Positions 786 to 30,031 of a DNA stretch of 64,000 bases are shown piece after piece (within the stretch, counting starts at the first letter, position 1; each line of letters starts with the position of its first letter). Under the pieces are notes generated by a model. It was not told the origin of the DNA and ran no database searches. It saw only the letters and a list, made by a program, of their open reading frames with translations. The DNA comes from a virus (Duplodnaviria; Caudoviricetes), in IMG/VR virus record IMGVR_UViG_3300049846_001081. One strand, written 5' to 3'. The position numbers and the translations under genes were made by a program.

Positions 786-977
786 ATGAAAACCTTTCAA
801 CAGTTTATTGAGCAAACTCCAGCGATGCAATCTAATGAGTATAATAAACAGGTTGCACGTCAATCTGCACGTTGGAAAGGTATGCAAATCCGTCAAGCAC
901 ATGGAGAAATGGAGCATGAAGCAGGTGCAGAACAATCTGCAAAGAAAGCAAGACTGAAAGCAATCATGTCTCGTTGA
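786..977 (+). CDS. Small basic protein with T4 capsid-targeting-like N-terminus
   Basis: MKTFQQFIEQ resembles the T4 internal-protein CTS MKTYQEFIAE; late-promoter-like AATAAATA at 759-766. Confidence 0.6.
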   Translation: MKTFQQFIEQTPAMQSNEYNKQVARQSARWKGMQIRQAHGEMEHEAGAEQSAKKARLKAIMSR

Positions 978-1015
978 ATTAAAGTTACTCACCTTCAAAG
1001 TGTTCTAGTAATGTA
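977..1015 (+). repeat. 39-bp element copy 1
   Basis: aattaaagttactcaccttcaaagtgttctagtaatgta. Confidence 0.95.
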
Positions 1016-1030
1016 AGCAACAATCCTATT

Positions 1031-1168
1031 ATGGACTCTTTTGACGACATTCAAATTGAAGATTTCTCCTCTTTTGATTTCGTTGAGGAGATGAATGAAG
1101 GTCTCTTTGATGAGAAAGATGATGACAAATCTTTTCAAGCATTTCTTAACTCTAACTGGGATTTCTGA
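1031..1168 (+). CDS. 45-aa very acidic protein (below ORF-track cutoff)
   Basis: Hand-translated MDSFDDIQIEDFSSFDFVEEMNEGLFDEKDDDKSFQAFLNSNWDF; starts 15 nt after repeat copy 1. Confidence 0.65.
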   Translation: MDSFDDIQIEDFSSFDFVEEMNEGLFDEKDDDKSFQAFLNSNWDF

Positions 1169-1184
1169 CAGTTTCTAAACTGTC
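1167..1184. promoter_or_regulatory. Perfect inverted repeat GACAGTTT-ct-AAACTGTC
   Basis: Read directly; followed by CAC and lies upstream of ORF 1229; related to 4830-4851. Confidence 0.6.
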
Positions 1185-1228
1185 CACTAAATCACCCACA
1201 CGGTTCTTTTATCCTTTATCATACTCAA

Positions 1229-1429
1229 ATGACTGAACAAATCCCTAACGTGCTTTCTCATATCAACGAACTGAAAGAAGCATGGCGCAAACAAGATTTT
1301 GTATTCACTAAACAACAACAAGAAGAATATGATTTACTTCTTGCCACTCGTCGTGAGCGTGTGAAGCAATTTTATGCTGAAGGACGTGTCTTTAAGGGTT
1401 CCTATAAAGCAAAGGAAGTTGAAATCTAA
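1229..1429 (+). CDS. Hypothetical protein
   Basis: 66-aa ORF in co-directional array. Confidence 0.7.
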   Translation: MTEQIPNVLSHINELKEAWRKQDFVFTKQQQEEYDLLLATRRERVKQFYAEGRVFKGSYKAKEVEI

Positions 1430-1455
1430 ATACTAAAAAGAGTGTTTAGATAACA

Positions 1456-2133
1456 ATGCGTACATTTCAGGAGTTTATGTCTCTTTGTGAAGCATCTGAT
1501 GCTGATACTGCCAGTCAACTTGGATGGGGTGGTGGTGCATCTATCACCCGCACAGGTGCTGGCGGTAGAATAGGGAAAGAACGCAAAAAGACTGCTCCTG
1601 AAGTTAGAAGAACCAAAGCAGTTGGTGGTGGTAAAACAGAACCTGTAGGACCATATAAAACACGCAAAGATGTTGGGCAACCACGTGGTTCTTCTGCACC
1701 AGCACCAGGAAGAGGTAAAGGTGCAACTGAACTAAAACCTGGCACTGCTGGAACTCAAGGTAGTGCCGCAATGTCTGCAAAAGAAAGACAACGTAAAGCA
1801 TACCTTGAGCGTAAAGCAAGAGAAGGTGGTAAAGCACAACCAAAAACTGCATCTCAAGCAATCTCTCAAGCAAAACCAACAGCAGAAAAACCAGCATCAA
1901 AACCACGCAGAAAGTGGGAACATGAAGGTGGTGGTGGTATGACCCGACAAGAAAGAGATAAAGCAAGGAATAAAGAGAAAACTGCAACAGCACAAAAGAC
2001 AAAGAAGTCTGCCACTGAGATTCTTGCACAAATGCGTAGAGAATACGAAGCAAATGGTGGAAAGTGGAGCAATGCTGTTGCTGTTCGTATGAGAGCAAAA
2101 GCAAAAGCGGTAGCACAAGCATCAGGAAGTTGA
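1456..2133 (+). CDS. K/R/A/G-rich basic protein with CTS-like N-terminus (candidate internal head protein)
   Basis: Starts MRTFQEFMSLCE; low-complexity basic body; TCTAAATA late-promoter-like site at 1425-1432. Confidence 0.65.
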   Translation: MRTFQEFMSLCEASDADTASQLGWGGGASITRTGAGGRIGKERKKTAPEVRRTKAVGGGKTEPVGPYKTRKDVGQPRGSSAPAPGRGKGATELKPGTAGTQGSAAMSAKERQRKAYLERKAREGGKAQPKTASQAISQAKPTAEKPASKPRRKWEHEGGGGMTRQERDKARNKEKTATAQKTKKSATEILAQMRREYEANGGKWSNAVAVRMRAKAKAVAQASGS

Positions 2134-2137
2134 GATC

Positions 2138-2176
2138 AATTAAAGTTACTCACCTCCAAAGTGTCCTAGTAGTATG
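2138..2176 (+). repeat. 39-bp element copy 2 (ends in ATG of ORF 2174)
   Basis: aattaaagttactcacctccaaagtgtcctagtagtatg. Confidence 0.95.
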
Positions 2177-2395
2177 ACTGATGCCTTCGCTATGGACCGA
2201 ATTGAAATCCAACGCAAACTCTATGATGCTCGCAATGAGTATCTAAAGGCAAAGAAGTCTATGGAGTTTTGGAAACGCGAAATCTCTTTCCTGAAAGAGT
2301 GTGAAGACAACCTCAAGAAAGGTCGCACTGGAGATTGGTTGTTCCGTGAAATGTTTGGCGATACTCCTATTGCTGAAGAAGTTTATGGTGGTTGA
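2174..2395 (+). CDS. Hypothetical protein
   Basis: 73-aa ORF starting at the repeat ATG. Confidence 0.7.
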   Translation: MTDAFAMDRIEIQRKLYDARNEYLKAKKSMEFWKREISFLKECEDNLKKGRTGDWLFREMFGDTPIAEEVYGG

Positions 2396-2485
2396 TTAAC
2401 TGCCACCAGCACCCCTCCACAATCGCCAGGAAGGGTGCTATAATAGTCTTTAGATACCAAACCACCCGAAACTCTGTAATTCGTA

Positions 2486-3727
2486 ATGTTCTCTGATCTG
2501 ATTAAACTTCGCCCACATCAAGAACGCGGTGTTGTTGCTATGCAACAGCATGATAAAGGTCAGGTGATTGTTCCCACTGGTGGTGGCAAGACTCTCAAGA
2601 TGATCTACGATGCTCTGCGCGAGTTACAGTCTGAAACTCCTCAGACCATTGTTGTTGTTGCTCCTCGCATCTTGCTTGCTGAGCAACTCTCTAGCGAGTT
2701 CCTTGAGTTCATCACTAACGCTAAAGTTTTCCACGTTCACAGTGGCGAAACTCATCACGAATCTTCTACTCGCCCTCGTGAAATCCGTAACTGGGTTGAT
2801 GCCAACGCTGACAATCATAAACTGATTGTAACCACCTACAACTCTCTGTCGCGTCTTCAAGTGGCAGAGATTGATGTGGATACGATCTACTTTGATGAGG
2901 CACATAACTCTGTTCAGCGTCACTTTTTCCCTGCAACTGAGTATTTCTCTGCTAACGCACGACGTTCGTATTTTTTCACGGCAACCCCGAAACATTCCCT
3001 CGCTGTTGGCAAACCTGGGATGAATGATACTGCGGTTTATGGTCAGGTAATCTGCAAAGTTCCTGCTCCTGAACTTGTTGAAGGCGGATATATTGTGCCT
3101 CCTAAAGTTATCGTCAAGCAACTGCAGATGGTGCAGGGCAAGCAAACCAACTTTGACCGAGACTCTGAGAATCTGCTAGAAACCATTGATGACAACAAGG
3201 TTGGCAAGATTTTGGTTTGTGCTAAGGCAACGAAGCAGATTGTGTCTTTGGTGACTGAAACTGATTTCTGTTTCCAGTTGGAGTGCCGTGGTTACTCTTG
3301 GATGTATATCACTGCTAAGACTGGTGCTGTCATTGATGGCAAGAAAGTGAACCGAGAAGTATTCTTTGACACGCTATCTGCCTGGGGTAAGGATAACGAT
3401 AAGAAGTTCGTAGTTCTTCACCACTCCATCCTTGCTGAAGGTATCAACGTGTCTGGTCTGGAAGCAGTGCTGTTTCTTCGCAATATGGACTTCATTGGTA
3501 TCAGTCAGACGATTGGACGTTGCATCCGTCTGCATCACGATGATGCTAAAGGTTTGCGTGATGGGCGTATCCAACCTGGCAACCTGGAGCAGTATAGCAA
3601 ATCGTTCGGTCTTGTGTGTATCCCAGTGTACTCCAAGGTTGGTATTGCTACCGCTCGCAGTGTGCAGTCGGTTGTTGATACGATCTTTGAGAAGGGAGAA
3701 CCTGCCATCTCGGTGGTGAGGCGCTGA
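2486..3727 (+). CDS. Superfamily II (DEAH) helicase, Res-III-like
   Basis: Motifs PTGGGKT (Walker A), DEAH, TATP, HSILAEGINV, QTIGRCIR; extended -10 TGCTATAAT at 2436-2444. Confidence 0.9.
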   Translation: MFSDLIKLRPHQERGVVAMQQHDKGQVIVPTGGGKTLKMIYDALRELQSETPQTIVVVAPRILLAEQLSSEFLEFITNAKVFHVHSGETHHESSTRPREIRNWVDANADNHKLIVTTYNSLSRLQVAEIDVDTIYFDEAHNSVQRHFFPATEYFSANARRSYFFTATPKHSLAVGKPGMNDTAVYGQVICKVPAPELVEGGYIVPPKVIVKQLQMVQGKQTNFDRDSENLLETIDDNKVGKILVCAKATKQIVSLVTETDFCFQLECRGYSWMYITAKTGAVIDGKKVNREVFFDTLSAWGKDNDKKFVVLHHSILAEGINVSGLEAVLFLRNMDFIGISQTIGRCIRLHHDDAKGLRDGRIQPGNLEQYSKSFGLVCIPVYSKVGIATARSVQSVVDTIFEKGEPAISVVRR

Positions 3728-3777
3728 GTCTCATAGTAGACTCAAGTATTCATCAGGGGTGAAACCCTGATTTTTTT
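3725..3777 (+). terminator. Double hairpin: TGAGTCT/AGACTCA stem, then Rho-independent terminator
   Basis: 3725-3744 stem-loop; 3752-3771 ATCAGGG-gtgaaa-CCCTGAT followed by a T run. Confidence 0.75.
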
Positions 3778-3845
3778 GTAATTCTACCTGGAGGGTGTCA
3801 TAGGTCATCCACCGCAACAAAATTAACGATTTATTGGAAAGTGTA

Positions 3846-4022
3846 ATGAAAGAAGGATTTATTGTTGGCAAAGGTAATTACTCTGCGATTCCTTATGGTA
3901 ATCAACTGATGGTAATTCACAACGGTCAGCAACTCAAAGTGTGTAGGACTGAAGCATCTGCTAGGAAGTTCATTGATGACCATAAAAAGGGTAAACCATT
4001 GGGCAAACTTCCATTGAATTAA
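3846..4022 (+). CDS. Hypothetical protein
   Basis: MKEGFIVGKGNYSAIPYG..; stop TAA lies inside repeat copy 3. Confidence 0.7.
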   Translation: MKEGFIVGKGNYSAIPYGNQLMVIHNGQQLKVCRTEASARKFIDDHKKGKPLGKLPLN

Positions 4023-4055
4023 AGTTACTCACCTCCAAAGTGTCCTAGTAGTGTA
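4017..4055 (+). repeat. 39-bp element copy 3
   Basis: aattaaagttactcacctccaaagtgtcctagtagtgta. Confidence 0.95.
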
Positions 4056-4070
4056 AGACGCATCTAATCT

Positions 4071-4316
4071 ATGCCTCGCACTCGCAAGCAAACCGCTAAT
4101 GTTGTTGCTGAAGTGAAAGTTCCTGAGGTTCTCATCACTCGCCAGCAATATATTCAAGACATTAAGGTTCGTTGGCAAATCCATCAATACGAAGTGAACA
4201 AACTTCGTGAAGATGTGAGCAAAGTTACTCAAACTGTTGCTCCCTATGTGAAAAACGCACTCGATTATGTTGTTACTCAGTTTCAACAAGTCCGTGCTAA
4301 GTATGCCACTAATTGA
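4071..4316 (+). CDS. Hypothetical protein (helical)
   Basis: 81-aa ORF starting 15 nt after the repeat. Confidence 0.7.
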   Translation: MPRTRKQTANVVAEVKVPEVLITRQQYIQDIKVRWQIHQYEVNKLREDVSKVTQTVAPYVKNALDYVVTQFQQVRAKYATN

Positions 4317-4327
4317 AGTGGAACTCT

Positions 4328-4349
4328 GGACTCTCTGAGTCCTTTTTTT
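4328..4349 (+). terminator. Rho-independent terminator
   Basis: GGACTC-tct-GAGTCC followed by T7. Confidence 0.75.
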
Positions 4350-4794
4350 ATTTGTATGAGTATCCTTCTTTTATGAACTGTTCTCTATAGTAATCTGCTA
4401 TTTTCTTAAACGATGATAAATCTGTTGATGCTCTAACATTATTAACACATTTTAGACACCAACAAAGATTATCTGGATGGTTTGCTTCATCAATCGTCAT
4501 TCCCATTATGAAACAAACTGCGAGTGGTATTTTGTGGTCTAATGATCTTTTTCTTGGGTCATTTGGATTGGGAAACTCTACTTCAGTATCCACAAATCTA
4601 ATCCCAGTATGATAGCAATAATCGTATTCTTTCAGAACTGGTTTAGCATCTTTTCTTAAATGTTTTACTTTTCCTATTCTTGTTCTGCTGTGTCTTTTTC
4701 TCACTTGATCTCCAGCAACTCTGATGTATTCTGTTAGTTCTATTTGAAACTTTGGTTGTTTGTATTCTATGCTGTTTCTTTCTATTAAGTTCAT
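4348..4794 (-). CDS. HNH endonuclease-like protein (putative free-standing homing endonuclease)
   Basis: SLDHKIP..ANHPDNLCWCLKCVNNVR fits the HNH beta-beta-alpha motif; only convincing minus-strand gene in the window; own late promoter. Confidence 0.7.
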   Translation of the reverse strand: MNLIERNSIEYKQPKFQIELTEYIRVAGDQVRKRHSRTRIGKVKHLRKDAKPVLKEYDYCYHTGIRFVDTEVEFPNPNDPRKRSLDHKIPLAVCFIMGMTIDEANHPDNLCWCLKCVNNVRASTDLSSFKKIADYYREQFIKEGYSYK

Positions 4795-4818
4795 AAGATA
4801 GATGGTTTCCGTCTACTT

Positions 4819-4826
4819 TATTTATA
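4819..4826 (-). promoter_or_regulatory. T4-type late promoter TATAAATA (minus strand)
   Basis: Plus strand reads TATTTATA, 24 nt upstream of the minus-strand ATG at 4794. Confidence 0.7.
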
Positions 4827-4829
4827 AGA

Positions 4830-4886
4830 GGACAGTTGTAAAAGTGTCCACTATCTCTTGACTTTTGCCCCTTGGAATCCTATTAT
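4830..4886 (+). promoter_or_regulatory. GGACA-N10-TGTCC dyad followed by sigma70-like promoter
   Basis: ggacagttgtaaaagtgtccac at 4830-4851; TTGACT 4858-4863, 17-bp spacer, TATTAT 4881-4886. Confidence 0.65.
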
Positions 4887-4892
4887 TTGATT

Positions 4893-5816
4893 ATGAACAA
4901 AACAACCACTAAAAACCTACACCTTGAGCACCCTGAAGATATGGTGCTGACTGGAAATCTTGAGGTTCTTGATTGGTTCTCTGAACCTGATAGTTTTATC
5001 TCTACAAAACTTGATGGAAGTCCTGCTATTGTTTGGGGCACAAATCCTCAGAATGGCAAGTTTTTTGTCTGCACCAAAGCAGCATTTAACAAGAAAAAGA
5101 TTCGTCTTTGCTATAACGAAGATGACATTTTCACTCATTTTGGTGGGCAACCGCGTGTAACGCAGATTCTCATTTTCTGCCTGGATTTCCTGCCTCGCAC
5201 TCAACAAGTGTTGCAAGGTGATTGGATTGGTTTCGGTGGTGGGTTGGATACATTTACTCCCAACACAATTACCTACAAGTTTCCTGCACCAGTTCGTCAG
5301 GATATTATCATCGCTCCGCACACAATCTACAGCGGTTCGGATGACATTCGTGAGATGACTGCTTCCCCTCTGAATAGCAAACTCATCAGCACTAAACATT
5401 GTCTTTTCGTGCAACCTGAAGTGGAACTGAATCCTTATCGCGAAGATTTGGAGGATGTGTGTAAGTTTGCCAAGCAAATGTCAACTCTGTGTGAGTTTGT
5501 GAGTGATCGTAAAGCATCACAAATCAAAAAAGAGATTAACGCTTGCATCCGTGAGCAAAAGGTCATTGATGAGGATGAAATTGCAGAAAAATGTGATTGT
5601 GACAAGAACCTGATCCGTTTGTGGAAGTTGGTAGCATCTATCAAGGATGATTTGTTCTTGTTCATTCACGAAAAGGATGATATTGATTGCTACATCAATG
5701 GCGAACAATCTTTCCACGAAGGTTATTGCATTTCTAACAAATACGGCATTTACAAAGTTGTTGATAGGGAAACTTTCTCACACGCTAACTTCACAATCGC
5801 TAAGAATTGGGGTTAA
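4893..5816 (+). CDS. Phage protein with RNA-ligase/nucleotidyltransferase-like motifs
   Basis: STKLDGS (KxDG), VLQGDWIG, HEGYCI and YKVVDRETFS resemble ligase motifs I, III, IV and V; ATG at 4893 follows the promoter. Confidence 0.55.
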   Translation: MNKTTTKNLHLEHPEDMVLTGNLEVLDWFSEPDSFISTKLDGSPAIVWGTNPQNGKFFVCTKAAFNKKKIRLCYNEDDIFTHFGGQPRVTQILIFCLDFLPRTQQVLQGDWIGFGGGLDTFTPNTITYKFPAPVRQDIIIAPHTIYSGSDDIREMTASPLNSKLISTKHCLFVQPEVELNPYREDLEDVCKFAKQMSTLCEFVSDRKASQIKKEINACIREQKVIDEDEIAEKCDCDKNLIRLWKLVASIKDDLFLFIHEKDDIDCYINGEQSFHEGYCISNKYGIYKVVDRETFSHANFTIAKNWG

Positions 5817-5853
5817 TTGAAGTTACTCACCTTCAAAGTGTTCTAGTAGTATG
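5815..5853 (+). repeat. 39-bp element copy 4 (ends in ATG of ORF 5851)
   Basis: aattgaagttactcaccttcaaagtgttctagtagtatg. Confidence 0.95.
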
Positions 5854-6285
5854 ACAACCACAACTTTCGCTGAATACGCTTCCCAGCAAGAGGCACGTCA
5901 GAACATCGCTAACGCTGTTCTAGCACATACTTACGCATTGTGTGAAGCATTGCGTCAGAATTACATTGATTATAGTATCAAATCTCATCAACTTCGCACG
6001 TCTGATGTAGAGTATCATGATGCCTGTATTGCTAAACTCAAGCAAGGCATTTGTGATTATGATTTCTATCCTGAGACTGGTAGAAAGTATCACAAAATTA
6101 TTATGAACGCTGCAGGATCTCGCTCTGTCCATGCTTTTGTGGATAAAAAGACTGGTGAAGTGTATAAGTCTGCCAGTTGGAAGTCTCCTGCCAAAGGTGT
6201 TCGTTATGACCTGCGATTGATTGAGCAACGTGAATGGTTGTTGCAACATGCTGACTGGGCAGGTGGTTATTTGTACGCAAGGTGA
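5851..6285 (+). CDS. Phage hypothetical protein
   Basis: 144 aa containing GRKYHKI..SVHAFVDKKTGEVYKSASWKSPAKGVRY, a motif I recall from many phage early proteins. Confidence 0.75.
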   Translation: MTTTTFAEYASQQEARQNIANAVLAHTYALCEALRQNYIDYSIKSHQLRTSDVEYHDACIAKLKQGICDYDFYPETGRKYHKIIMNAAGSRSVHAFVDKKTGEVYKSASWKSPAKGVRYDLRLIEQREWLLQHADWAGGYLYAR

Positions 6286-6485
6286 TGATTATGAATCAAG
6301 AGCAACTTATCCGTTCAATCAGTCAACAACTTGAAAATCTAATGTCCTTAGATGAAGAGTTGTCTGAAAAGTATGATGCGTATTGTTTCTACCCTGACAC
6401 TGATTATGAACCGATTGTAGAACGATTCACTCCCGAACTTCTCAAAGAACTTGAGAAACTTGTTTATCAACTTGAGACCGAATGA
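6285..6485 (+). CDS. Small acidic hypothetical protein
   Basis: Coupled via TGATG; E/D-rich. Confidence 0.65.
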   Translation: MIMNQEQLIRSISQQLENLMSLDEELSEKYDAYCFYPDTDYEPIVERFTPELLKELEKLVYQLETE

Positions 6486-6736
6486 CTTACTCTAACCTCT
6501 CAAAGATCCGTCCTAAACTTCGTACAACTGGGCGTGTGTCTGGTAACTTCGGACGCAACAAAGTATCAGCAGGATCATCACTCAATGACATTGGTGGTGA
6601 TGGTAACATAGGGGCAACACAAGATGAATACCTGAACCGATTGTATTATGCTTTTGATAACACTACCGAACCTAAACTTCGCCAGTTCATTTATTCGGAA
6701 ATCCGCAAAATCCACATTCAAAGAGGAACGTGGTAA
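6482..6736 (+). CDS. Hypothetical protein
   Basis: 84-aa ORF, ATGA-coupled to the previous gene. Confidence 0.7.
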   Translation: MTYSNLSKIRPKLRTTGRVSGNFGRNKVSAGSSLNDIGGDGNIGATQDEYLNRLYYAFDNTTEPKLRQFIYSEIRKIHIQRGTW

Positions 6737-6741
6737 CAAAC

Positions 6742-6780
6742 AATTAAAGTTACTCACCTCCAAAGTGTTCTAGTGGTATA
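6742..6780 (+). repeat. 39-bp element copy 5
   Basis: aattaaagttactcacctccaaagtgttctagtggtata. Confidence 0.95.
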
Positions 6781-6798
6781 ACCACTGAAATCCACCAA

Positions 6799-7338
6799 AT
6801 GTTTAATTCTATTTTTGAAGATGGATCTCTCCAAGATTACATCAATCAAAATGCACAAGATCCTTGGATTGGTACACCTTTCCAAGGTTATGTGTTTATG
6901 TCTCCCAAGCAAAAAGGTGAGTTTGGTGAGCGTTTCGTATCAAAGTTCTTTGAGAGTGTGTTGCTTTGTGATGTAAAACGTGCAAAAACTTCTACTGCTG
7001 GGCACGATCGTGTCATTGATGGTATTCTAACTGAAATTAAGTTTTCTCTTGCTACCCGTGACAAAAAGGGTGGCACAAAGAAAGATCAATTCATCATCAA
7101 TCATGTCTCAAAGGATAAGGATTGGGAGCGTCTTGTGTTCTTTGGTATCAATCAAGATGAGAAAGATTGTCGTTTGTTTTGGTTTAGCAAAGAGGATTTT
7201 CTGAGTCATCTTGAGTCTGATGATTGTCTGTTCGCATCACAGCAAGGTGGCAAATCTATCGGCAATGATGATTACATTTGCACAAAAGTTGATCGTCTGG
7301 TAGAATGTTCGTTTGTGAAGAGCATAACCGAATGGTGA
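6799..7338 (+). CDS. Putative PD-(D/E)xK restriction endonuclease
   Basis: KGEFGE helix and HDRVIDGILTEIKFS (D..E-x-K); overlaps the methyltransferase start. Confidence 0.6.
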   Translation: MFNSIFEDGSLQDYINQNAQDPWIGTPFQGYVFMSPKQKGEFGERFVSKFFESVLLCDVKRAKTSTAGHDRVIDGILTEIKFSLATRDKKGGTKKDQFIINHVSKDKDWERLVFFGINQDEKDCRLFWFSKEDFLSHLESDDCLFASQQGGKSIGNDDYICTKVDRLVECSFVKSITEW

Positions 7339-8060
7339 ATCTATTTCACGGTGATTGTTTAGACATTCTACCAACACTTGCAGATAATTCTGTTGATCTG
7401 GTGTTAGTAGATCTGCCATACGGAACAACAGCATGTAAATGGGATTCTATCATTCCTCTAGACAAATTGTGGGAGCAGTATAACAGAATCTGCAAGGAAG
7501 ATGGTGCGATGGTATTCACCGCAGCACAACCATTCACAACTATACTTGCATCATCAAATCTTGAGAACTTTCGTTATGAGTGGATTTGGGAAAAACCACA
7601 GGGAACTAATCCTATGAACGCGAAAGTGATGCCTCTCAAGTCACACGAAAACATTCTGGTTTTTTATCGCAAGAAACCCACATATAATCCTCAAATGTGG
7701 TATTCAACTCCTTACAGTGGTTTCTCATCAGATACCAGCAAGATTGGGGAGGTTTATGGTAAAGCACAATCAAAGCATCGCGATAATCCTGATGGATCAA
7801 GATATCCAAAGACAGTGTTACGATTCAAGCAAGAAAAGGGATTGCATCCTACACAGAAACCTGTAGATTTAATGGAGTATTTGATCAGAACATATAGCAA
7901 TGAAGGTGATACTGTTCTTGATAATACCATGGGATCAGGTACAACTGGTGTTGCATGTGTGAACACTAATAGAAACTTTGTTGGTATTGAAAGTGATGAT
8001 CAATACTACAAGATTGCCAGTGATCGTATCAACAATCCTCTGCTATCTGCTCTGAATTAA
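7332..8060 (+). CDS. N6-adenine/N4-cytosine DNA methyltransferase (beta class)
   Basis: Motif IV DLPY, HPTQKP and motif I DNTMGSGTT in beta order; ATG 7332 overlaps the REase stop; stop is inside repeat copy 6. Confidence 0.9.
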   Translation: MVNLFHGDCLDILPTLADNSVDLVLVDLPYGTTACKWDSIIPLDKLWEQYNRICKEDGAMVFTAAQPFTTILASSNLENFRYEWIWEKPQGTNPMNAKVMPLKSHENILVFYRKKPTYNPQMWYSTPYSGFSSDTSKIGEVYGKAQSKHRDNPDGSRYPKTVLRFKQEKGLHPTQKPVDLMEYLIRTYSNEGDTVLDNTMGSGTTGVACVNTNRNFVGIESDDQYYKIASDRINNPLLSALN

Positions 8061-8093
8061 AGTTACTCACCTCCAAAGTGTCCTAGTAGTATG
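8055..8093 (+). repeat. 39-bp element copy 6 (ends in ATG of ORF 8091)
   Basis: aattaaagttactcacctccaaagtgtcctagtagtatg. Confidence 0.95.
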
Positions 8094-8312
8094 AACGACA
8101 CTATCATGGATCAAGTCTACCACTATCACACCAACTGGAAAGAAGGTAAAGTGAATCAAATGTGGATTCAGCAAGTAGAAGACAAGTTCATTGCTATTGC
8201 ATACAATCCCGAAAAGAATGTGTCAATGCCAATGTCCAAACCCCGCACTTCCTACGATGAAACTCTACAATGGGTTCGCAAGTGGTGTGGAACTTTCTGT
8301 CCTCTTTACTGA
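8091..8312 (+). CDS. Hypothetical protein
   Basis: 73-aa ORF from the repeat ATG. Confidence 0.7.
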   Translation: MNDTIMDQVYHYHTNWKEGKVNQMWIQQVEDKFIAIAYNPEKNVSMPMSKPRTSYDETLQWVRKWCGTFCPLY

Positions 8313-8319
8313 TTGATTG

Positions 8320-8484
8320 ATGATGAAAAACTACAAAATTACGGTTGAAACATTTGATGGATTGCGTACTATTTGGTATGAAAAATCCAAAGCAAAAAAA
8401 GCAACCGATATTATCTGCAATCGTGTTTATCAACAACTTTGTGGATTGAATGTGAAGCGAATCTCTGTTGATCTTTCCGTATGA
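8320..8484 (+). CDS. 54-aa hypothetical protein
   Basis: Hand-translated MMKNYKITVETFDGLRTIWYEKSKAKKATDIICNRVYQQLCGLNVKRISVDLSV. Confidence 0.6.
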   Translation: MMKNYKITVETFDGLRTIWYEKSKAKKATDIICNRVYQQLCGLNVKRISVDLSV

Positions 8485-8618
8485 TTACACTTGCTGTTGG
8501 TGGAGTTATTCTCACCATATTCTGCACCATGTTTTATCTTGAGGACCGCGATGGTGGTGGTCTTTATGATCCCGATCCGTCTGCATCTTACCGTCACAAA
8601 CAATCAAAAAACAAATGA
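8481..8618 (+). CDS. 45-aa protein with N-terminal hydrophobic segment
   Basis: MITLAVGGVILTIFCTMFYLEDRDGGG..; ATGA coupling at both ends. Confidence 0.55.
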   Translation: MITLAVGGVILTIFCTMFYLEDRDGGGLYDPDPSASYRHKQSKNK

Positions 8619-8755
8619 AATACGAAGTCAAACTGTACGTTGGTGGCAAAGTCTTCACTGAAGAAGTATATGCTAACGATCAAAAATCTGCAAGAGAAAC
8701 AGCAGAAGCACGAAATCCTACCGCAAAAGTTATTGGTGTCAATGCAAAGTTCTAG
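8615..8755 (+). CDS. 46-aa hypothetical protein
   Basis: MKYEVKLYVGGKVFTEEVYANDQKSARETAEARNPTAKVIGVNAKF; stop 1 nt before repeat copy 7. Confidence 0.65.
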   Translation: MKYEVKLYVGGKVFTEEVYANDQKSARETAEARNPTAKVIGVNAKF

Positions 8756-8756
8756 G

Positions 8757-8795
8757 AATTAAAATTACTCACCTTGAAAGTGTTCTAGTAGTATG
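8757..8795 (+). repeat. 39-bp element copy 7 (ends in ATG of ORF 8793)
   Basis: aattaaaattactcaccttgaaagtgttctagtagtatg. Confidence 0.95.
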
Positions 8796-8963
8796 AGCAA
8801 GACTTTCACCGTTCGCTTCACCTCTGAAGCACTCAATTCTCCCGAATACATTGGACCTTTTTACTCTGAAGATGATGCCAATGATTATGCTGATGATCGC
8901 AACAGTTCTTTAGCATTATCTGGTATTCCTTCCTCTGTTGCTTGTTATTCTGTTGTTGACTGA
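8793..8963 (+). CDS. 56-aa hypothetical protein
   Basis: MSKTFTVRFTSEALNSPEYIGPFYSEDDANDYADDRNSSLALSGIPSSVACYSVVD. Confidence 0.65.
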   Translation: MSKTFTVRFTSEALNSPEYIGPFYSEDDANDYADDRNSSLALSGIPSSVACYSVVD

Positions 8964-8965
8964 TT

Positions 8966-9136
8966 ATGATACAAACTACTCTCACTTTTGAGGAGATTGA
9001 TGCACTTCTCAAGTTCATCGAGTTTCACACTGATTCATTTGTTGACGAAGAATCTGTAGAAGAATTGAATGGAATTGTGGGGTGTGATGTTGATGCACTC
9101 TACACCAAACTTTCTGAAATGCAGGATGAAGTCTGA
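8966..9136 (+). CDS. 56-aa acidic protein
   Basis: MIQTTLTFEEIDALLKFIEFHTDSFVDEESVEELNGIVGCDVDALYTKLSEMQDEV. Confidence 0.65.
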   Translation: MIQTTLTFEEIDALLKFIEFHTDSFVDEESVEELNGIVGCDVDALYTKLSEMQDEV

Positions 9137-9348
9137 TGCAATTCCAAGTTACTGAAATTGAGTTTGATTTCACTGATGATCTTGATGATGAAGCACTAGA
9201 TGTTGAAACTCAAGATGAGATTTATGATGAGGTTCTAGGTACAATCTGGGAAGCAGATGATGAAGATGATCTCATTGAAGAAATCACATGTGCAACAGGT
9301 TGGTGCATCAAATCCATTGATTATCGTCACATTCTTAACACTTTCTGA
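9136..9348 (+). CDS. 70-aa very acidic protein
   Basis: MQFQVTEIEFDFTDDLDDEALDVETQDEIYDEVLG..; TGATG-coupled. Confidence 0.75.
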   Translation: MQFQVTEIEFDFTDDLDDEALDVETQDEIYDEVLGTIWEADDEDDLIEEITCATGWCIKSIDYRHILNTF

Positions 9349-9359
9349 AACGAACTAAA

Positions 9360-9572
9360 ATGACACTTACTTCTGACCAACTTCGCAAACTGATTCAACT
9401 TTATGCTGAGCGAGTTGTTGATAGTATGGATGTGCGCGATTTGTGTGCATTTGCCATTGACACAATTTGTGATAACATGACGGACTATAATGAGTCTGAA
9501 TTGATGGAAGAATTGTCGCACTATTATGAGGACGACGAACTCAACGAATTGGTTGAATCTGTCAAGAATTAA
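9360..9572 (+). CDS. 70-aa acidic protein
   Basis: C-terminus DYNESELMEELSHYYEDDELNELVESVKN; stop inside repeat copy 8. Confidence 0.7.
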   Translation: MTLTSDQLRKLIQLYAERVVDSMDVRDLCAFAIDTICDNMTDYNESELMEELSHYYEDDELNELVESVKN

Positions 9573-9605
9573 AGTTACTCACCTCCAAAGTGTCCTAGTA
9601 GTATG
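9567..9605 (+). repeat. 39-bp element copy 8 (ends in ATG of ORF 9603)
   Basis: aattaaagttactcacctccaaagtgtcctagtagtatg. Confidence 0.95.
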
Positions 9606-9770
9606 AGCATCACACTTGACCTTGAAATGGCATCTGAACTGATCGGATTTATGAATGACTTTCCTGTCGCAGATTTGAATGATTGTGTAGACTTCATCTG
9701 TGACAAGTTTGATGTATCTGCAACCGATGAGTTGATTGATGCTGTTGCTGACTTTTTCTTTGCTAACTGA
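9603..9770 (+). CDS. 55-aa acidic protein
   Basis: MSITLDLEMASELIGFMNDFPVADLNDCVDFICDKFDVSATDELIDAVADFFFAN. Confidence 0.65.
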   Translation: MSITLDLEMASELIGFMNDFPVADLNDCVDFICDKFDVSATDELIDAVADFFFAN

Positions 9771-9776
9771 TAACAA

Positions 9777-9956
9777 ATGACACACTACAATCCTTATGTT
9801 CAAAACCTGATTGAGATGGGTTATGATGAGAAAGACTGCCAAACTGTAGCAGTTGCTGGTATGAAAAAGCAATTTCCACTTAACATTCACGGTCGCATCT
9901 TTGAGACTGAAAGTGAATACAAGGAAGCACTTGCTGACTTTATCAATGGTCTGTAG
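9777..9956 (+). CDS. 59-aa hypothetical protein
   Basis: MTHYNPYVQNLIEMGYDEKDCQTVAVAG..; TAG abuts repeat copy 9. Confidence 0.65.
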   Translation: MTHYNPYVQNLIEMGYDEKDCQTVAVAGMKKQFPLNIHGRIFETESEYKEALADFINGL

Positions 9957-9995
9957 AATTAAAGTTACTCACCTTGAAAGTGTTCTAGTAGTATG
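9957..9995 (+). repeat. 39-bp element copy 9 (ends in ATG of ORF 9993)
   Basis: aattaaagttactcaccttgaaagtgttctagtagtatg. Confidence 0.95.
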
Positions 9996-10229
9996 AATCA
10001 AACCACTTACACCTCTCCTGATACAAACAAGACTTATACGGTTATTGAATCACAATCTGAGCGTGGTGCATGGGATAAGGATGGAAACTATGCACCAGTT
10101 GTTGTGACTCAGTACAGCATTTATGATGATAACAAGATGGTGCAATTTGCTTTTGATGTAGAAGGAATTGCACGTTCTGTAAAGCATTATGAATTGCCTG
10201 GTCCTGATTTAGGTTCACGCTTTGACTAA
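9993..10229 (+). CDS. Hypothetical protein
   Basis: 78-aa ORF from the repeat ATG. Confidence 0.7.
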   Translation: MNQTTYTSPDTNKTYTVIESQSERGAWDKDGNYAPVVVTQYSIYDDNKMVQFAFDVEGIARSVKHYELPGPDLGSRFD

Positions 10230-10364
10230 AAGTTTAACATTCAAGAGTCCAAGTAAAGTGAAAACCATCGCATTGATTTTTATTGTTGCGATGATATTCT
10301 CACCACAAGTGAGATACACAACCGCACAAACATTACACACCGTTGCTGATCTAATTTCCCCACA

Positions 10365-10613
10365 ATGAGAAGCGTAAAAGTTCATTCAAGCAAGAGTGTT
10401 AATTTCACATCAAAGGCATCATTTTGGTGTGAGATGATTAATCTTTATAGGCGAATCTATCCGTCACATTCTTTTGCTCAAATCGCAAAACATTTCAATC
10501 TGTCAGAGACAAATACTCGTCGGTATTATTACGGGATTCATCACTACAACTCTTTTCCCGTTTATTATACACAGATGAGGCAGGGTGCATGTGTCTCAAT
10601 TCCACACAATTAA
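10365..10613 (+). CDS. Small helix-turn-helix DNA-binding protein
   Basis: SFAQIAKHFNLSETNTRRYY fits an HTH pattern; stop inside repeat copy 10. Confidence 0.55.
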   Translation: MRSVKVHSSKSVNFTSKASFWCEMINLYRRIYPSHSFAQIAKHFNLSETNTRRYYYGIHHYNSFPVYYTQMRQGACVSIPHN

Positions 10614-10646
10614 AGTTACTCACCTCCAAAGTGTTCTAGTAGTATA
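10608..10646 (+). repeat. 39-bp element copy 10
   Basis: aattaaagttactcacctccaaagtgttctagtagtata. Confidence 0.95.
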
Positions 10647-10667
10647 AGACCTCTGAAATCTCCAACC

Positions 10668-10979
10668 ATGCGAGTCATTGAAAAGCAAATGAATCAAGCA
10701 ATCAGCACTGAAACTGATTGGAAGAAAGATAATACTCAAGTTATCAACATTGAAGGTGTAAGTTTCGTCTATCTGTATAACAATCTGATTGCAATGGTAG
10801 GTGACACTTGGTTAGAATTGTTTGATGGTGGATGGAAGACTAATACCACCAAGTCTCGCCTCAATGCTATTCTCCAAGAGCATGGAAATGGAGAGTACAT
10901 TTTCCAGAAAAACTTCAACTGGTTTGTATCAACAATCAACGGTGATGTTCCTTTCAACAATGGCATCAAACTCGACTGA
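10668..10979 (+). CDS. Phage hypothetical protein
   Basis: 103 aa with DGGWKTNTTKSRLNAIL motif. Confidence 0.75.
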   Translation: MRVIEKQMNQAISTETDWKKDNTQVINIEGVSFVYLYNNLIAMVGDTWLELFDGGWKTNTTKSRLNAILQEHGNGEYIFQKNFNWFVSTINGDVPFNNGIKLD

Positions 10980-10992
10980 CTGATTGAATAAA

Positions 10993-11169
10993 ATGACTGA
11001 ACTTGAACTTCAATGTGTCCATCTTGCCTATCAACTTGCAGAGGAAATCAATGGTGATGTGAGTTGCGTACCTGATGAAGATATGGAGGTTATTCTTAAC
11101 AAACTGAATCGTAATAACGTTCAAGAAGTTGCACAAGAAATCGCTGATCTTGCACACTGGTTTAACTAA
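10993..11169 (+). CDS. Small acidic hypothetical protein
   Basis: MTELELQCVHLAYQLAEEINGDV.. Confidence 0.6.
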   Translation: MTELELQCVHLAYQLAEEINGDVSCVPDEDMEVILNKLNRNNVQEVAQEIADLAHWFN

Positions 11170-11339
11170 TGACTGATACCGACAAAGTATTTGCTCTAAC
11201 TGAACTTCTGGGTGATGTAATTCACACTCTTGAAATGAAACAGTATGACATTGAAGATGCTACTCTGTCTTATGAATGTGTGACTGATGCTGATAAGTTT
11301 CGCCAAAAGATGATCGACATTCTTTATCCAAACAAATGA
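11169..11339 (+). CDS. 56-aa hypothetical protein
   Basis: MTDTDKVFALTELLGDVIHTLEMKQYDIEDATLSYECVTDADKFRQKMIDILYPNK; TAATG-coupled. Confidence 0.6.
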   Translation: MTDTDKVFALTELLGDVIHTLEMKQYDIEDATLSYECVTDADKFRQKMIDILYPNK

Positions 11340-11500
11340 CAAAATCAATCAATCAAGAACTCAAAACCCAAGCAGTTGTAGAAGCACTAGAGTTCTACAT
11401 TCAGAATCTCAAAGACACCAACTGTACGCAATCTTCAATCGACTTTTATACTCAAGTATTGAAAGAAGTTGATTCTGAACTCCAACATTCTGTACTCTAA
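11336..11500 (+). CDS. 54-aa hypothetical protein
   Basis: MTKSINQELKTQAVVEALEFYIQNLK..; ATGA-coupled. Confidence 0.6.
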   Translation: MTKSINQELKTQAVVEALEFYIQNLKDTNCTQSSIDFYTQVLKEVDSELQHSVL

Positions 11501-11504
11501 ACTA

Positions 11505-11678
11505 ATGCAAAAGACATTCAAAAAGTTCATCTGGAAAGACTCAAGATCCAATCAAGTTAAAGTCATTCTAGCAAGGTCAGAATACCAAGCAAGGAAACAA
11601 AACTTTGGTAATCTTGCTGGTTATCTTTACTCTCACTCTGTTGCGCTTGCGCTTAACCCTTCGGGCACTCTAAACTGA
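11505..11678 (+). CDS. Hypothetical protein
   Basis: MQKTFKKFIWKDSRSNQVKVILARSEYQAR.. Confidence 0.55.
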   Translation: MQKTFKKFIWKDSRSNQVKVILARSEYQARKQNFGNLAGYLYSHSVALALNPSGTLN

Positions 11679-11812
11679 TGTTTCTCATTCGTTATTTCAC
11701 TCCTTATCAACAACAATGGAGGACACAATCATTCTCTACACTTGATGAGGCACAACGCATGATTGAGTTCTATCGTTCTTGTGGAAGTCCTGCTGAACTT
11801 ATCAACAACTGA
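11678..11812 (+). CDS. 44-aa hypothetical protein
   Basis: MFLIRYFTPYQQQWRTQSFSTLDEAQRMIEFYRSCGSPAELINN; TGATG-coupled. Confidence 0.6.
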   Translation: MFLIRYFTPYQQQWRTQSFSTLDEAQRMIEFYRSCGSPAELINN

Positions 11813-11819
11813 AACTCTC

Positions 11820-11951
11820 ATGATTGAAACACTGATCGCATCAATTATCGTAGGACAAGTTATCTCTGGTCCAAACACTTTACAGACTGAATACCTAACT
11901 GAAAGGGATGAAGTTATCACTATAGTGGAGACGATTCAAGAGGTTCCGTAA
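11820..11951 (+). CDS. 43-aa hypothetical protein
   Basis: MIETLIASIIVGQVISGPNTLQTEYL.. Confidence 0.55.
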   Translation: MIETLIASIIVGQVISGPNTLQTEYLTERDEVITIVETIQEVP

Positions 11952-11959
11952 TAACATAG

Positions 11960-11984
11960 AGGCACCACATCAGGTGCCTTTTTT
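11960..11984 (+). terminator. Rho-independent terminator
   Basis: GGCACC-acatca-GGTGCC followed by T6. Confidence 0.75.
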
Positions 11985-12314
11985 AATGCCTATTTGTACG
12001 ATTTATGCTAAAAAAACAATAAAAAACGATTAAAAATGTATTAAAAAATATATGTATGTTGTTTTAATCGTCTGATCATTATTGTTATCAATGTGTGATA
12101 ATGATATGAATTCGTATCATTTATGTGCTTGTAATCTCTCTGTGTGCCTATAAACCTCTCCAGATATGTGTGCTGATACCTTATAAATGTGCTGAGGTCT
12201 TGTGATCTAAGCGAGCATAACATAACGACCGCACTTTGTCAACTTCCAGGGTCACAAAATCCCCACAATCCCCCCATCAAAATCCACACCCCGCTCATAA
12301 ATACGCCCAGGGAC

Positions 12315-12343
12315 TTGACACTTATTCCCAGGCATCTTACAAT
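12315..12343 (+). promoter_or_regulatory. Sigma70-like promoter
   Basis: TTGACA, 17-bp spacer, TACAAT; GGAG RBS before ORF 12372. Confidence 0.75.
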
Positions 12344-12371
12344 ACTCTCATAACACCAAAGGAGCGTACTT

Positions 12372-12545
12372 ATGTCAGTTGCTTATAGTCAAGCGCAGAA
12401 GCAGCGTTATAGGATCACTCTGGATCTATCAGTGTTCGGTGACTTTGACCCACATCAGATTGATTGGGAGAAGTTATTCAAGTTGGAACCTGCAGAAAAG
12501 TGTGATGCTTACGTTGAGGATCTAAGTACACCTGACCGTTGGTGA
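12372..12545 (+). CDS. 57-aa hypothetical protein
   Basis: MSVAYSQAQKQRYRITLDLSVFGDFDPHQIDWEKLFKLEPAEKCDAYVEDLSTPDRW. Confidence 0.7.
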   Translation: MSVAYSQAQKQRYRITLDLSVFGDFDPHQIDWEKLFKLEPAEKCDAYVEDLSTPDRW

Positions 12546-12554
12546 TTTAGCAGT

Positions 12555-12593
12555 CATTAAAGTTGCTCACCTTTAAAGTGTCCTAGTAGTATG
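12555..12593 (+). repeat. 39-bp element copy 11 (most diverged; ends in ATG of ORF 12591)
   Basis: cattaaagttgctcacctttaaagtgtcctagtagtatg. Confidence 0.9.
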
Positions 12594-12887
12594 AGGGGCA
12601 GACAAACGACCCCCCACACAGACACTAACTCTTCACAAATGACTGTTACTTATCAGACCAACATTCAGGACCAAACCTATAACGGTTGGACGAATTATGA
12701 GACCTGGAATGTTGCACTGTGGATCAGCAATGATGAGGGTCTTTATGACATTGCACGTCGTTGTGATGATTATCAAGACTTCGTAGATGCAGTGGAAGGA
12801 CTTATCACTAAGACGCCTGACGGAGTATCATTCACCAGCGATATGTTGAACTTCCACGAACTCAACGACATGATTGAAGATCTCTGA
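12591..12887 (+). CDS. Phage hypothetical protein
   Basis: YNGWTNYETWNVALWI motif; true start could be an internal Met (MTVTY..). Confidence 0.75.
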   Translation: MRGRQTTPHTDTNSSQMTVTYQTNIQDQTYNGWTNYETWNVALWISNDEGLYDIARRCDDYQDFVDAVEGLITKTPDGVSFTSDMLNFHELNDMIEDL

Positions 12888-30007: not shown

Positions 30008-30031
30008 TAAATAGATAAAAAACTCCATCAA

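Follow-up and report, generated by a model that had tools for sequence, protein, structure and literature searches.

A ~39-nt repeat that occurs eleven times in the window, the 64,000-nucleotide stretch of virus DNA analyzed here (IMG/VR record IMGVR_UViG_3300049846_001081), is best explained as the dedicated promoter with which one clade of T4-like cyanomyoviruses drives its early-type block of highly variable small genes, an explanation in which we place moderate confidence. Under it, transcription would start at position 37 of the repeat and produce leaderless or short-leader mRNAs, the stop codons crowding the left edge would be a product of compaction, and the same repeat would supply the homology for cassette shuffling. 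The window virus is itself a freshwater T4-like cyanomyovirus.

The anatomy, statistics and conservation of the repeat, and the clustering of homology breakpoints at its copies, are demonstrated features of a family of about 420 distinct copies, spread over 92 viral contigs and one isolate, Synechococcus phage SynMITS9220M01. Shuffled sequence yields 0 to 0.4 matches, as compared to the eleven found in the window:

977..1015, + strand, repeat copy 1: GTA at positions 37-39; the upstream TGA overlaps position 1; gene start at 1031 (position 55)
2138..2176, + strand, repeat copy 2: in-frame ATG at 2174 and a second in-frame ATG at 2192; upstream stop 4 nt before the repeat
4017..4055, + strand, repeat copy 3: GTA at positions 37-39; upstream gene ends AAT-TAA at 4022; gene start at 4071
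5815..5853, + strand, repeat copy 4: heads a DUF7717 gene that can start only at ATG 5851; positions 1-2 belong to the upstream TAA
6742..6780, + strand, repeat copy 5: ATA at positions 37-39; upstream stop 5 nt before; gene start at 6799 (position 58)
8055..8093, + strand, repeat copy 6: a Dam methylase gene ends AAT-TAA at 8060; in-frame ATG at 8091, second ATG at 8106
8757..8795, + strand, repeat copy 7: ATG at 8793 is the sole possible start; upstream TAG 1 nt before
9567..9605, + strand, repeat copy 8: upstream AAT-TAA at 9572; in-frame ATG at 9603, second ATG 24 nt on
9957..9995, + strand, repeat copy 9: gene can start only at ATG 9993; upstream TAG immediately before the repeat
10608..10646, + strand, repeat copy 10: ATA at positions 37-39; upstream AAT-TAA at 10613; Kyano_Gp96 gene start at 10668 (position 61)
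12555..12593, + strand, repeat copy 11, diverged: ATG at 12591, then a leader with a G/C hairpin (12595-12615); DUF7249 start probably at 12639

The conserved core spans ~39 nt, with a weak AAnTT signal 10 nt upstream and a conserved A/C-rich stretch that continues to about position 48. It contains stop codons in all three frames (TAA at 4-6, TAG-TAG at 30-35 and TRA at 38-40), the TAA being in frame with the ATG at 37-39. All copies point in the same direction as the genes, and each heads a group of 1-5 tightly coupled genes; in the window only the heads of gene clusters carry the repeat, not each gene. Each of two complete relatives confines its repeats to one block (15 copies within 15.5 kb in one, 10 within 9.6 kb in the other), and in three genomes all copies lie in a single 10-15 kb block that adjoins the baseplate module, among small genes of unknown function. 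The core is kept between freshwater contigs and the marine isolate although backbone protein identity is only 33-69%, and several copies occupy orthologous positions across distant genomes. Folding of the repeat revealed no inverted repeat or hairpin (z-scores of -0.5 to +1.6 against shuffled sequence), and Rfam gave no match.

The ATG at the right edge is a real start codon. Of the 234 copies that have it, 220 (94%) use it to open a reading frame of 40 codons or more, whereas the same frame is open in 76 of the 187 copies with another triplet at these positions (41%; odds ratio 23, p = 9e-35), and it is the sole possible start in 102 copies from 31 sequence groups, about a quarter of all copies. 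Within gene families the homologous methionine lies either at position 37 or at positions 52-61, with starts at positions 40-51 almost absent. A T stands at position 36 in 98% of copies and a purine at position 37 in 100%; both lie outside the repeat search pattern. An earlier note on this DNA had taken the terminal ATG as the in-frame start in seven copies (2174, 5851, 8091, 8793, 9603, 9993 and 12591). The frame is indeed open in all seven, but the start at 12591 probably does not hold: the DUF7249 match begins at 12639, probably the real start, and relatives that share the hairpin leader of copy 11 have their starts at positions 81-87 and in different frames. The note was right that 5851, 8793 and 9993 have no nearby alternative methionine, as no other in-frame start was found, and that the four copies without the ATG start 15-21 nt later, at positions 55, 55, 58 and 61. 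What it missed, judging from the sequence patterns, is that the right-edge ATG probably reflects an mRNA start and not recombination.

These patterns lead us to infer promoter activity, a start at position 37 and leaderless translation. Transcription would begin at the invariant purine 37, just after T36; with ATG at 37-39 the mRNA would be leaderless and the ATG its start codon, and with GTA, ATA or ATC there it would carry a 15-24 nt leader lacking a Shine-Dalgarno sequence, with the gene starting at 52-61. Two RNA contig ends weakly favor a start at or before position 37: one contig (run X9) begins at 1021, just behind repeat copy 1, which is position 45 and 8 nt past position 37, and another begins at 8104, just behind repeat copy 6, 13 nt past it. 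Several observations count against a start at 37. It would place TGTYCT at -12 to -7 (positions 25-30) and ATTAAA in the -35 region, neither of which resembles host sigma-70 signals; in some leaders the hairpin reaches back to pair with positions 33-34, which lie 5' of the proposed start; and in each of the three complete arrays the leading copy is without ATG37, as would be expected if this codon were served only by read-through transcripts. The other sigma-70 register and the gene content of the complete relatives, both described below, also count against it. A more specific version, which we put forward only tentatively, holds that a clade of freshwater and marine T4-like cyanophages uses a phage-specific ~40-nt promoter outside host sigma-70 rules that fires on the A of the start codon, that a large share of its early messages lack leaders, the host itself relying little on Shine-Dalgarno pairing, that a helper protein would come from the virion, an early phage gene or the host, and that the same unit serves as a crossover patch.

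A host-type promoter in the window serves as a ruler for this geometry; it is listed here with two terminators of the window:

3752..3778, + strand, intrinsic terminator after the helicase gene, upstream of the repeat at 4017
4328-4349, terminator after the gene at 4071
4858..4895, + strand, host-type promoter TTGACT-17 nt-TATTAT, its -10 box ending 6 nt before the ATG at 4893 of a DUF6267 gene

The repeat at 4017 and the gene at 4071, bracketed by the terminators at 3752 and 4328, make a self-contained unit. In relatives, 11 of 424 distinct copies lie directly behind hairpin-plus-T-run terminators; among these are four DUF6267 copies (three distinct sequences, all from one gene family) in which ATG37 is the sole start and which sit immediately 3' of strong terminators. 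The host-type promoter at 4858 is itself predicted from its sequence to yield a leaderless DUF6267 mRNA, and host-type promoters of this gene family keep the -10 box at exactly 6 nt from the ATG in the window, in three contigs, in phage Bellamy and in S-SSM7, six cases in total. In DUF6267 relatives with a leader the distance from -10 box to ATG is 21-24 nt. The predicted start-to-ATG distance is therefore 0 or 15-18 nt, two peaks as at repeat positions 37 and 52-61.

An unlikely alternative, and the one that survives best, is that the repeat is a strong host sigma-70-type early promoter as in T4, starting at ~43-46, so that ATG37 would be translated only on read-through transcripts from upstream. 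In that register the A/T tracts would form an UP element, with GTTACT or TTACTC as the -35 and TAGTAT (33-38) or TATAGT (31-36) as the -10 sequence; with TAnnnT as the -10, the spacer is 17-19 nt. A TAnnnT at 33-38 is found in about 90% of copies (T33 99%, A34 90%, T38 96%), and AAnTT and AATTAAAG sit at the expected distal and proximal UP subsites. The marine variant GTTACT-17 nt-TATAGT is close to the T4/PST early promoter consensus, TTTACW-N17-TAYWAT (PMC4122927). The A-rich positions 40, 43 and 46, the RNA contig starting exactly at position 45, and the array-first copies lacking ATG37 also fit such a start. So does the gene content of the complete relatives, which encode no T7-type or other phage RNA polymerase and, as a sigma factor, only a gp55-type late one.

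A start at ~43-46 would, however, leave the 102 ATG37-only copies (31 groups) heading genes that cannot be translated from their own transcript, including the four that sit directly 3' of terminators, and it leaves unexplained why starts fall at exactly 37 and nearly never at 40-51. It also implies leaders of 7-16 nt, as compared to at least 13 nt for the late genes here; among late and host-type promoters in these phages the shortest leader measures 13-15 nt. About 10% of copies, including every copy in some contigs, read TTGTAT and so lack the key A, the spacer is much more conserved than those of sigma-70 promoters, and genuine TTGACA/TATAAT promoters co-occur in the repeat's own block.

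It is considerably less probable that the repeat acts in a long polycistronic RNA, either as a processing site cut before position 37 or as a sequence-specific translation initiation region, and is not a promoter at all. Such a role would suit the co-directional gene that precedes nearly all copies, the RNA contig that spans the copy at 12555 uninterrupted, the efficient use of ATG37 as a start codon and the GU/AU at positions 35-38, which we take to be loosely RNase E-site-like. A conserved block upstream of the inferred 5' end is, however, the layout of a promoter; the repeat has no RNA structure and stands only at gene-cluster heads, with eleven copies immediately after intrinsic terminators, and a 40-nt recognition sequence would be unusual for an RNase.

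Returning to the promoter reading, its left edge is crowded by upstream stop codons, and here the ORF table bore out the earlier note: the stop overlaps the repeat in six of 11 copies, four as in-frame AAT-TAA (4022, 8060, 9572 and 10613) and two partially (977, TGA plus A1; 5816, T plus AA), and the remaining five stops lie 0, 1, 4, 5 and 9 nt before it. Family-wide, roughly 65% of the stops upstream share bases with the repeat. Among 400 distinct copies on 92 viral contigs, the stop is the TAA at 4-6 in 130, begins at position 0 in 56 and at -1 in 41. Upstream genes terminate in all three frames relative to the repeat, at variable offsets. The note had named equally tight spacing at ordinary promoters as something that would refute its reading, and for the left edge the window shows just this: its late-promoter boxes (NATAAATA) are packed as closely, with the upstream stop inside four of 11 and within 3 nt in three more (7/11 in total):

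30006..30013, + strand, late-promoter box AATAAATA, which shares bases with the TAA that ends the 4008-aa baseplate gene; used as a left-edge control
15621, 41708 and 51528, similar late-promoter boxes

Compaction, which the note had allowed as a contributor, thus emerges as the main cause at the left edge, and the stops touch it only because the genome leaves no spare DNA; no frame would read through the core, and the A/T-rich edge would supply the TAA. The left "end" is also not a junction, since the AAnTT signal (weak, frame-independent, at -10 to -6) extends the functional element into upstream coding sequence. Anyone reading raw sequence should take stop codons lodged within the edge of a promoter as a consequence of compaction and not as evidence for recombination.

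Recombination at the repeats, which the earlier note had proposed in the form of precise, integron-like junctions, is plausible in another sense. Homology breakpoints number 2.0-2.3 per repeat as compared to 0.65-0.85 per ordinary gene junction, and three arrays share one gene order in which cassettes have appeared, disappeared or changed place at the repeats. The same ~40 bp, present 10-15 times per block, would thus act as homology patches at which relatives gain, lose and swap cassettes, as do the promoter-early stem-loops (PeSLs) discussed below. A further PeSL trait is the excision of mini-circles through recombination between tandem motifs; contig joints at repeats were seen in related populations, where they are indistinguishable from assembly paths through a 39-nt repeat. 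That the repeat is instead a site-specific recombination site like integron attC, its fused stops and starts the scars of precise junctions, is highly improbable: breakpoints do cluster at both repeat ends, cassettes of relatives differ at repeat copies and spacers are near zero on both sides, but there is no inverted repeat or hairpin, the tyrosine recombinase PF00589 is absent from both complete relatives (one of 222.6 kb, and MT408532) and found in 14 of 14 control genomes, stops use all three frames at variable offsets, the two repeat ends vary independently (odds ratio 0.97), the conserved signal runs on into the upstream gene, late-promoter boxes overlap stops likewise, and several copies are orthologously placed in distant genomes.

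How early genes are switched on in the abundant cyanomyoviruses of oceans and lakes is poorly understood; these viruses lack the T4 proteins Alt, ModA/B, AsiA and MotA (PMC2984593). If the promoter reading is true, a rigid, clade-wide promoter with a defined start in the cultured phage SynMITS9220M01 would offer a handle on its reader and a test of leaderless translation as a regular early strategy in picocyanobacteria. For annotation, start codons in dozens of families of small, functionally uncharacterized genes could be placed at repeat position 37 or 52-61.

Several known systems invite comparison. Integron attC sites are imperfect inverted repeats that fold single-stranded and need the IntI recombinase, and integron cassettes are mostly promoterless. 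Like them, the repeats bound small gene cassettes whose ends may overlap the repeat; unlike them, they have no fold, no integrase is encoded by either complete relative, and each is promoter-like. The host element CGRE1, bound by PMM1637, has a GTTA/GTTG...inverted-repeat layout (PMC6191309) that the repeat lacks. Units of a palindrome, TGnTATAAT and a short leader (15-18 nt) lie upstream of DUF6267 in S-RIM2, Syn33, ACG-2014f, ACG-2014d and P-SSM7, and they too head groups of small early genes in cyanomyoviruses, but the repeat has neither the palindrome nor a TATAAT at the matching distance.

Leaderless mRNAs are common in actinobacteria and haloarchaea, and lambda cI transcribed from PRM is the classic phage case of one arising from a -10 box 6-7 nt before the AUG. 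The literature searched contained no description of leaderless early genes in T4-like cyanophages. The repeat resembles such promoters in that the start codon would fall on the inferred transcription start, in that start-to-AUG distances are either 0 or about 14 nt and more, and in that the exact geometry is found in the host-type DUF6267 promoters of the six phages or contigs. It differs in having no -10-like hexamer 6-7 nt before the ATG; such a hexamer is seen only in the host-type promoter at 4858-4886 and its counterparts. A related case is halovirus HF2, whose intergenic repeats carry promoters (PMC8707807).

The closest parallel is with PeSLs, the mobile regulatory cassettes of the T4-type phages RB49/phi1, T4/PST and KVP40/nt-1 (Arbiol et al. 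2010, PMC2839356; Comeau et al. 2014, PMC4122927); dense PeSL arrays were not seen in cyanophage S-PM2, according to a 2015 paper (PMC4503421). Unlike a PeSL, the repeat lacks a Shine-Dalgarno sequence, holds its start codon inside the conserved block and not after a leader, has a core far more conserved than a -35/-10 pair, and, with position 37 as the transcription start, would depart from sigma-70 geometry. An adjoining stem-loop is found at 0 of 11 window copies because the upstream stop overlaps the motif, whereas in some relatives a terminator stem-loop directly precedes it. In common with PeSLs, the repeat is a well-conserved, repeated motif of putative early-promoter type, clustered in the hyperplastic regions of T4-like phages amid small genes whose function is unknown, with the downstream start codon at its 3' edge and with insertions, deletions and replacements between relatives concentrated at its copies.

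The window derives from a freshwater T4-like cyanomyovirus. Large ORFs match the T4 baseplate proteins gp6 and gp8, with giant wedge proteins of 4008 and 2480 aa on the flanks, and the first 14 kb carry small plus-strand genes together with a helicase, a DUF6267 protein and an N6/N4 DNA methylase. DNA near-identical to the window was found in freshwater metagenomes; Prochlorococcus and Synechococcus myoviruses match it at the nucleotide level in short patches only. A late-type box, AATAAATA, lies at 759-766, 19 nt upstream of the ATG at 786 (gene 786-977). Further features of the window are:

1456-2133, gene in the repeat block
17981-30007, giant baseplate-region protein of 4008 aa, with a YHYH domain at about residues 1233-1330
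31589-39031, giant baseplate-region protein of 2480 aa, with DUF4815

Eleven plus-strand copies of a 39-nt repeat are spread across 977-12593. Scanning viral contigs for the exact pattern gave 92 loci with about 405-424 distinct copies, and the isolate Synechococcus phage SynMITS9220M01 (MT408532) carries at least ten copies of a variant, at 40.4-50.0 kb of its genome. The copies all lie on one strand and adjoin the baseplate genes, within 15.5 kb in a complete 222.6-kb relative and within 9.6 kb in MT408532. The arrays of these two genomes and the window are collinear, their backbone proteins are 33-91% identical, and several repeat copies hold orthologous positions. Conservation of the repeat's core (positions 9-18, 21-27, 33 and 36-38) far exceeds that of the encoded proteins, so the element is evidently under direct selection. 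Stops occur in all three frames within it (TAA at 4-6, TAG-TAG at 30-35, TRA at 38-40), and the TAA at 4-6 shares its frame with the ATG found at positions 37-39 of many copies (ATG37).

Variation among copies takes several forms. In some lineages the repeat ends in GTTGTATG and the TAnnnT hexamer is lost; this applies to every copy in the contig loci L010 and L013, to three of four in L015 and to some in L006, L038 and L048, all with ATG at position 37. A second version, in L034 (about 6140-6235) and L061 (about 1700-1785), keeps the right half (GAAAGTG...CCTATAGTATG) with the TTACTCACCTCC core swapped for a GC-rich AACTGGGCCCCT-type segment, which suggests that the element may be of two-part design. 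Half-degraded copies also occur, such as TAATTAAAGTTAGGA after a gene in L021.

The earlier note had placed stop codons at the left end of the repeat and start codons at its right end, and all of its coordinates check out against the sequence and ORFs of the window. One start, although correct as a position, was probably misassigned: the gene behind copy 12555 probably starts at 12639 rather than 12591, because its DUF7249 match begins there and relatives sharing its G/C-hairpin leader have their starts at positions 81-87, in frames other than that of ATG37. That the right-end ATG serves as an in-frame start is otherwise upheld. Of the 234 distinct copies with ATG37, 220 (94%) have an ORF of 40 codons or more running from it, as compared to 76 of 187 copies (41%) in which the same frame is open behind another triplet (p = 9e-35). 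An additional in-frame ATG follows at about positions 49-64 in 118 ATG37 copies, against a background of 1.6% Met per codon, and for the other 102 copies, which fall into 31 sequence groups, there is no alternative start at all. Copies lacking ATG37 have gene starts at positions 52-61, and in family alignments the homologous Met falls at position 37 or at 52-61, depending on the member; DUF6267 proteins, for example, begin MKNTHLEH from position 37 or MQNKHLEH from position 52, the latter behind an in-frame ATG37. The ORF statistics, the sole-start copies and the alignments thus mark ATG37 as a genuine start codon. GenBank likewise annotates MT408532 CDSs from the ATG at repeat position 37. 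At late-promoter boxes the ATGs lie 18-42 nt downstream, one doubtful site excepted, and none coincide with the box as ATG37 does with the repeat.

A subclass of copies has long leaders of 40-50 nt (12594-12638 in the window, and L047, L088, L090, L049, L020 and L032), with a G/C hairpin immediately behind the repeat and the word CACTAAC recurring among them. Relatives have stems of different sequence, yet the stems are maintained.

The left end behaves differently. In the 400 copies that have an ORF ahead of them, the upstream stop overlaps the repeat in about 65% and most remaining stops lie no more than 7 nt away; its first base falls most often at position 4 (130 copies), 0 (56) or -1 (41). 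These stops occupy all three frames relative to the repeat. Conservation of 56-68% is seen for AA at -10/-9 and for TT at -7/-6, whichever frame the upstream gene uses; since this signal extends beyond position 1 in every frame, the element reaches into the final codons of unrelated genes. The terminal Asn that the earlier note proposed to compare with repeat-less homologues, or Asp in its place, proved within gene families to be of two kinds: either one residue is added that such homologues lack, or the gene's own last codon has slid under positions 1-3. The proposal that the fused stops are junction scars does not survive comparison with other promoters. Late genes of the window are preceded by 11 late-promoter boxes (NATAAATA); the upstream stop lies inside four of these (15621, 30006, 41708 and 51528) and 2-3 nt from three more, and ordinary gene junctions are just as tight (gap of 10 nt or less in 33 of 70). 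The left-end pattern therefore reflects genome compaction, which had been offered as a contributor. Stop overlap and ATG37 also vary independently (odds ratio 0.97, p = 0.91), which rules out translational coupling across the repeat.

The layout of the repeat is that of a promoter. It shares the direction of the genes, sits at the head of translationally coupled gene clusters, is confined to the early-type gene block, and is directly preceded by an intrinsic terminator in 11 copies. In a lake metatranscriptome, two RNA contigs begin 8 and 13 nt past position 37 of copies 977 and 8055, which is weak evidence since contigs do not show transcript ends; these data comprise contigs from one run covering part of the region, and gaps and joints at repeats prove nothing.

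Transcription most plausibly starts at position 37, so that ATG37 messages would be leaderless. Start codons are bimodal, lying at position 37 or 52-61 and hardly ever in between, and T36 (98%) and a purine at 37 (100%) are conserved although both lie outside the search pattern. Strong terminators stand directly ahead of four DUF6267 copies in which ATG37 is the sole start. The same gene family provides a ruler: in the window (4858-4895), three contigs, phage Bellamy and S-SSM7, the DUF6267 ATG follows the -10 box of a host-type -35/-10 promoter at a distance of exactly 6 nt, and in five other isolates this distance is 21-24 nt. The predicted start thus lies 0 or 15-18 nt before the ATG, matching the 0 or 15-24 nt measured from position 37. 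The main competitor is a sigma-70 promoter starting at positions 43-46, in which A/T tracts would act like an UP element, GTTACT would serve as -35 box and TAnnnT (33-38) as -10 box. GTTACT does resemble the T4/PST -35 consensus TTTACW, but about 10% of copies, including every copy in some contigs, read TTGTAT and so lack the key A of the -10 box. Against a start at position 37, no -10-like hexamer lies ahead of it, complete relatives have no phage RNA polymerase and only a gp55-type late sigma factor, ATG37 is missing from the copies that open each array, and some leader hairpins pair back past position 37. Hairpins at the 5' terminus were not used as proof of this start: stems begin at 37-41 when folded from position 37 on, but several reach 28-36 once upstream context is included.

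Other identities fared worse. A -10 box at NAAAGT (positions 20-25) is not favoured, its -12 position being variable and its 11-nt distance to the ATG rare at host-type promoters, and one at TAAAGT (positions 4-9) is rejected because the marine variant does not retain this hexamer. A T7-like promoter, hinted at by a T3-promoter likeness (AATTAA...CTCAC...AAAG), would call for a single-subunit RNA polymerase, which complete relatives lack, though this is weak evidence because control genomes gave no match either. A structured RNA or terminator is ruled out by the lack of any RNA fold or Rfam match, and the host CGRE1/PMM1637 palindrome differs in arrangement.

Good host-type promoters also occur within the repeat block, and therefore two promoter classes coexist there:

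2416-2444, host-type promoter TCCACA-17-TATAAT with upstream TG; -10 box 41 nt before the ATG at 2486, preceded by a hairpin at 2412-2437
12315-12343, host-type promoter TTGACA-17-TACAAT; -10 box 28 nt before the ATG at 12372
13718-13747, host-type promoter TTGACA-18-TAAAAT with upstream TG; -10 box 23 nt before the ATG at 13771

The last of these, a strong promoter, precedes gene 13771-14538, whose 255-aa product has no Pfam match and, at 88.6% identity to its MT408532 counterpart, surpasses every other protein of the repeat-bearing block in conservation by a wide margin; it is, as pure speculation, a candidate regulator.

The DUF6267 gene has a repeat copy directly ahead of it in several relatives, and instead a host-type promoter with leaderless geometry in the window. 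Between it and gene 4071-4316 lie:

4328-4349, strong terminator
4348-4794, minus strand, AT-rich ORF of 148 aa with no Pfam match
4831-4848, stem-loop

Positions 4399-4809 have zero depth in two related populations, so a gene appears to have been inserted here. A stem-loop that recurs in the window, GACAGTT-loop-AACTGTCC with ACTA behind it, is found at 1167-1189, after gene 1031-1168, and at 4831-4853, ahead of the promoter at 4858. Similar hairpins, of the ACTGGCACA type, precede DUF6267 promoters in S-RIM2, Syn33, ACG-2014f and P-SSM7.

Relatives differ in gene content at the repeat. In an all-against-all comparison of loci (514 copies), internal homology breakpoints concentrate at both repeat ends, with some 1200 alignments starting within -10 to +9 and some 1030 ending within +30 to +49, or 2.0-2.3 per repeat copy as compared to 0.65-0.85 per ordinary gene junction. 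Gene adjacency, a noisy measure based on crude gene calls, breaks at 77% of repeat junctions versus 64% of others. Comparison of the three arrays shows cassettes that have been inserted, lost or relocated at repeat copies; the homologue of window gene 2174, for example, stands behind a different copy in MT408532. Contigs of related populations link different flanks via a repeat, which assembly paths could also explain. The integron-cassette analogy drawn in the earlier note fails as a claim of family membership, since the repeat has no hairpin and the two complete relatives have no tyrosine recombinase. Homologous exchange within the repeated 40 bp would suffice, and because stop and start signals occupy the outer parts of the unit, a crossover inside it would leave both neighbouring genes intact.

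In the literature surveyed, which excludes Doron et al. 2016, we found no paper on this repeat or on leaderless early genes in cyanophages. The closest known kind is PeSL, the promoter-early stem-loop cassette of T4-type phages, where gene turnover likewise clusters at the motif. Unlike PeSL, the repeat has neither a stem-loop in the window nor a Shine-Dalgarno sequence, and carries the start codon inside its conserved block; sigma-70 rules also fail to account for its core. The GACAGTT hairpin ahead of the promoter at 4858, like the hairpins before the DUF6267 promoters of S-RIM2 and the others, does resemble PeSL in pairing a stem-loop with a promoter.
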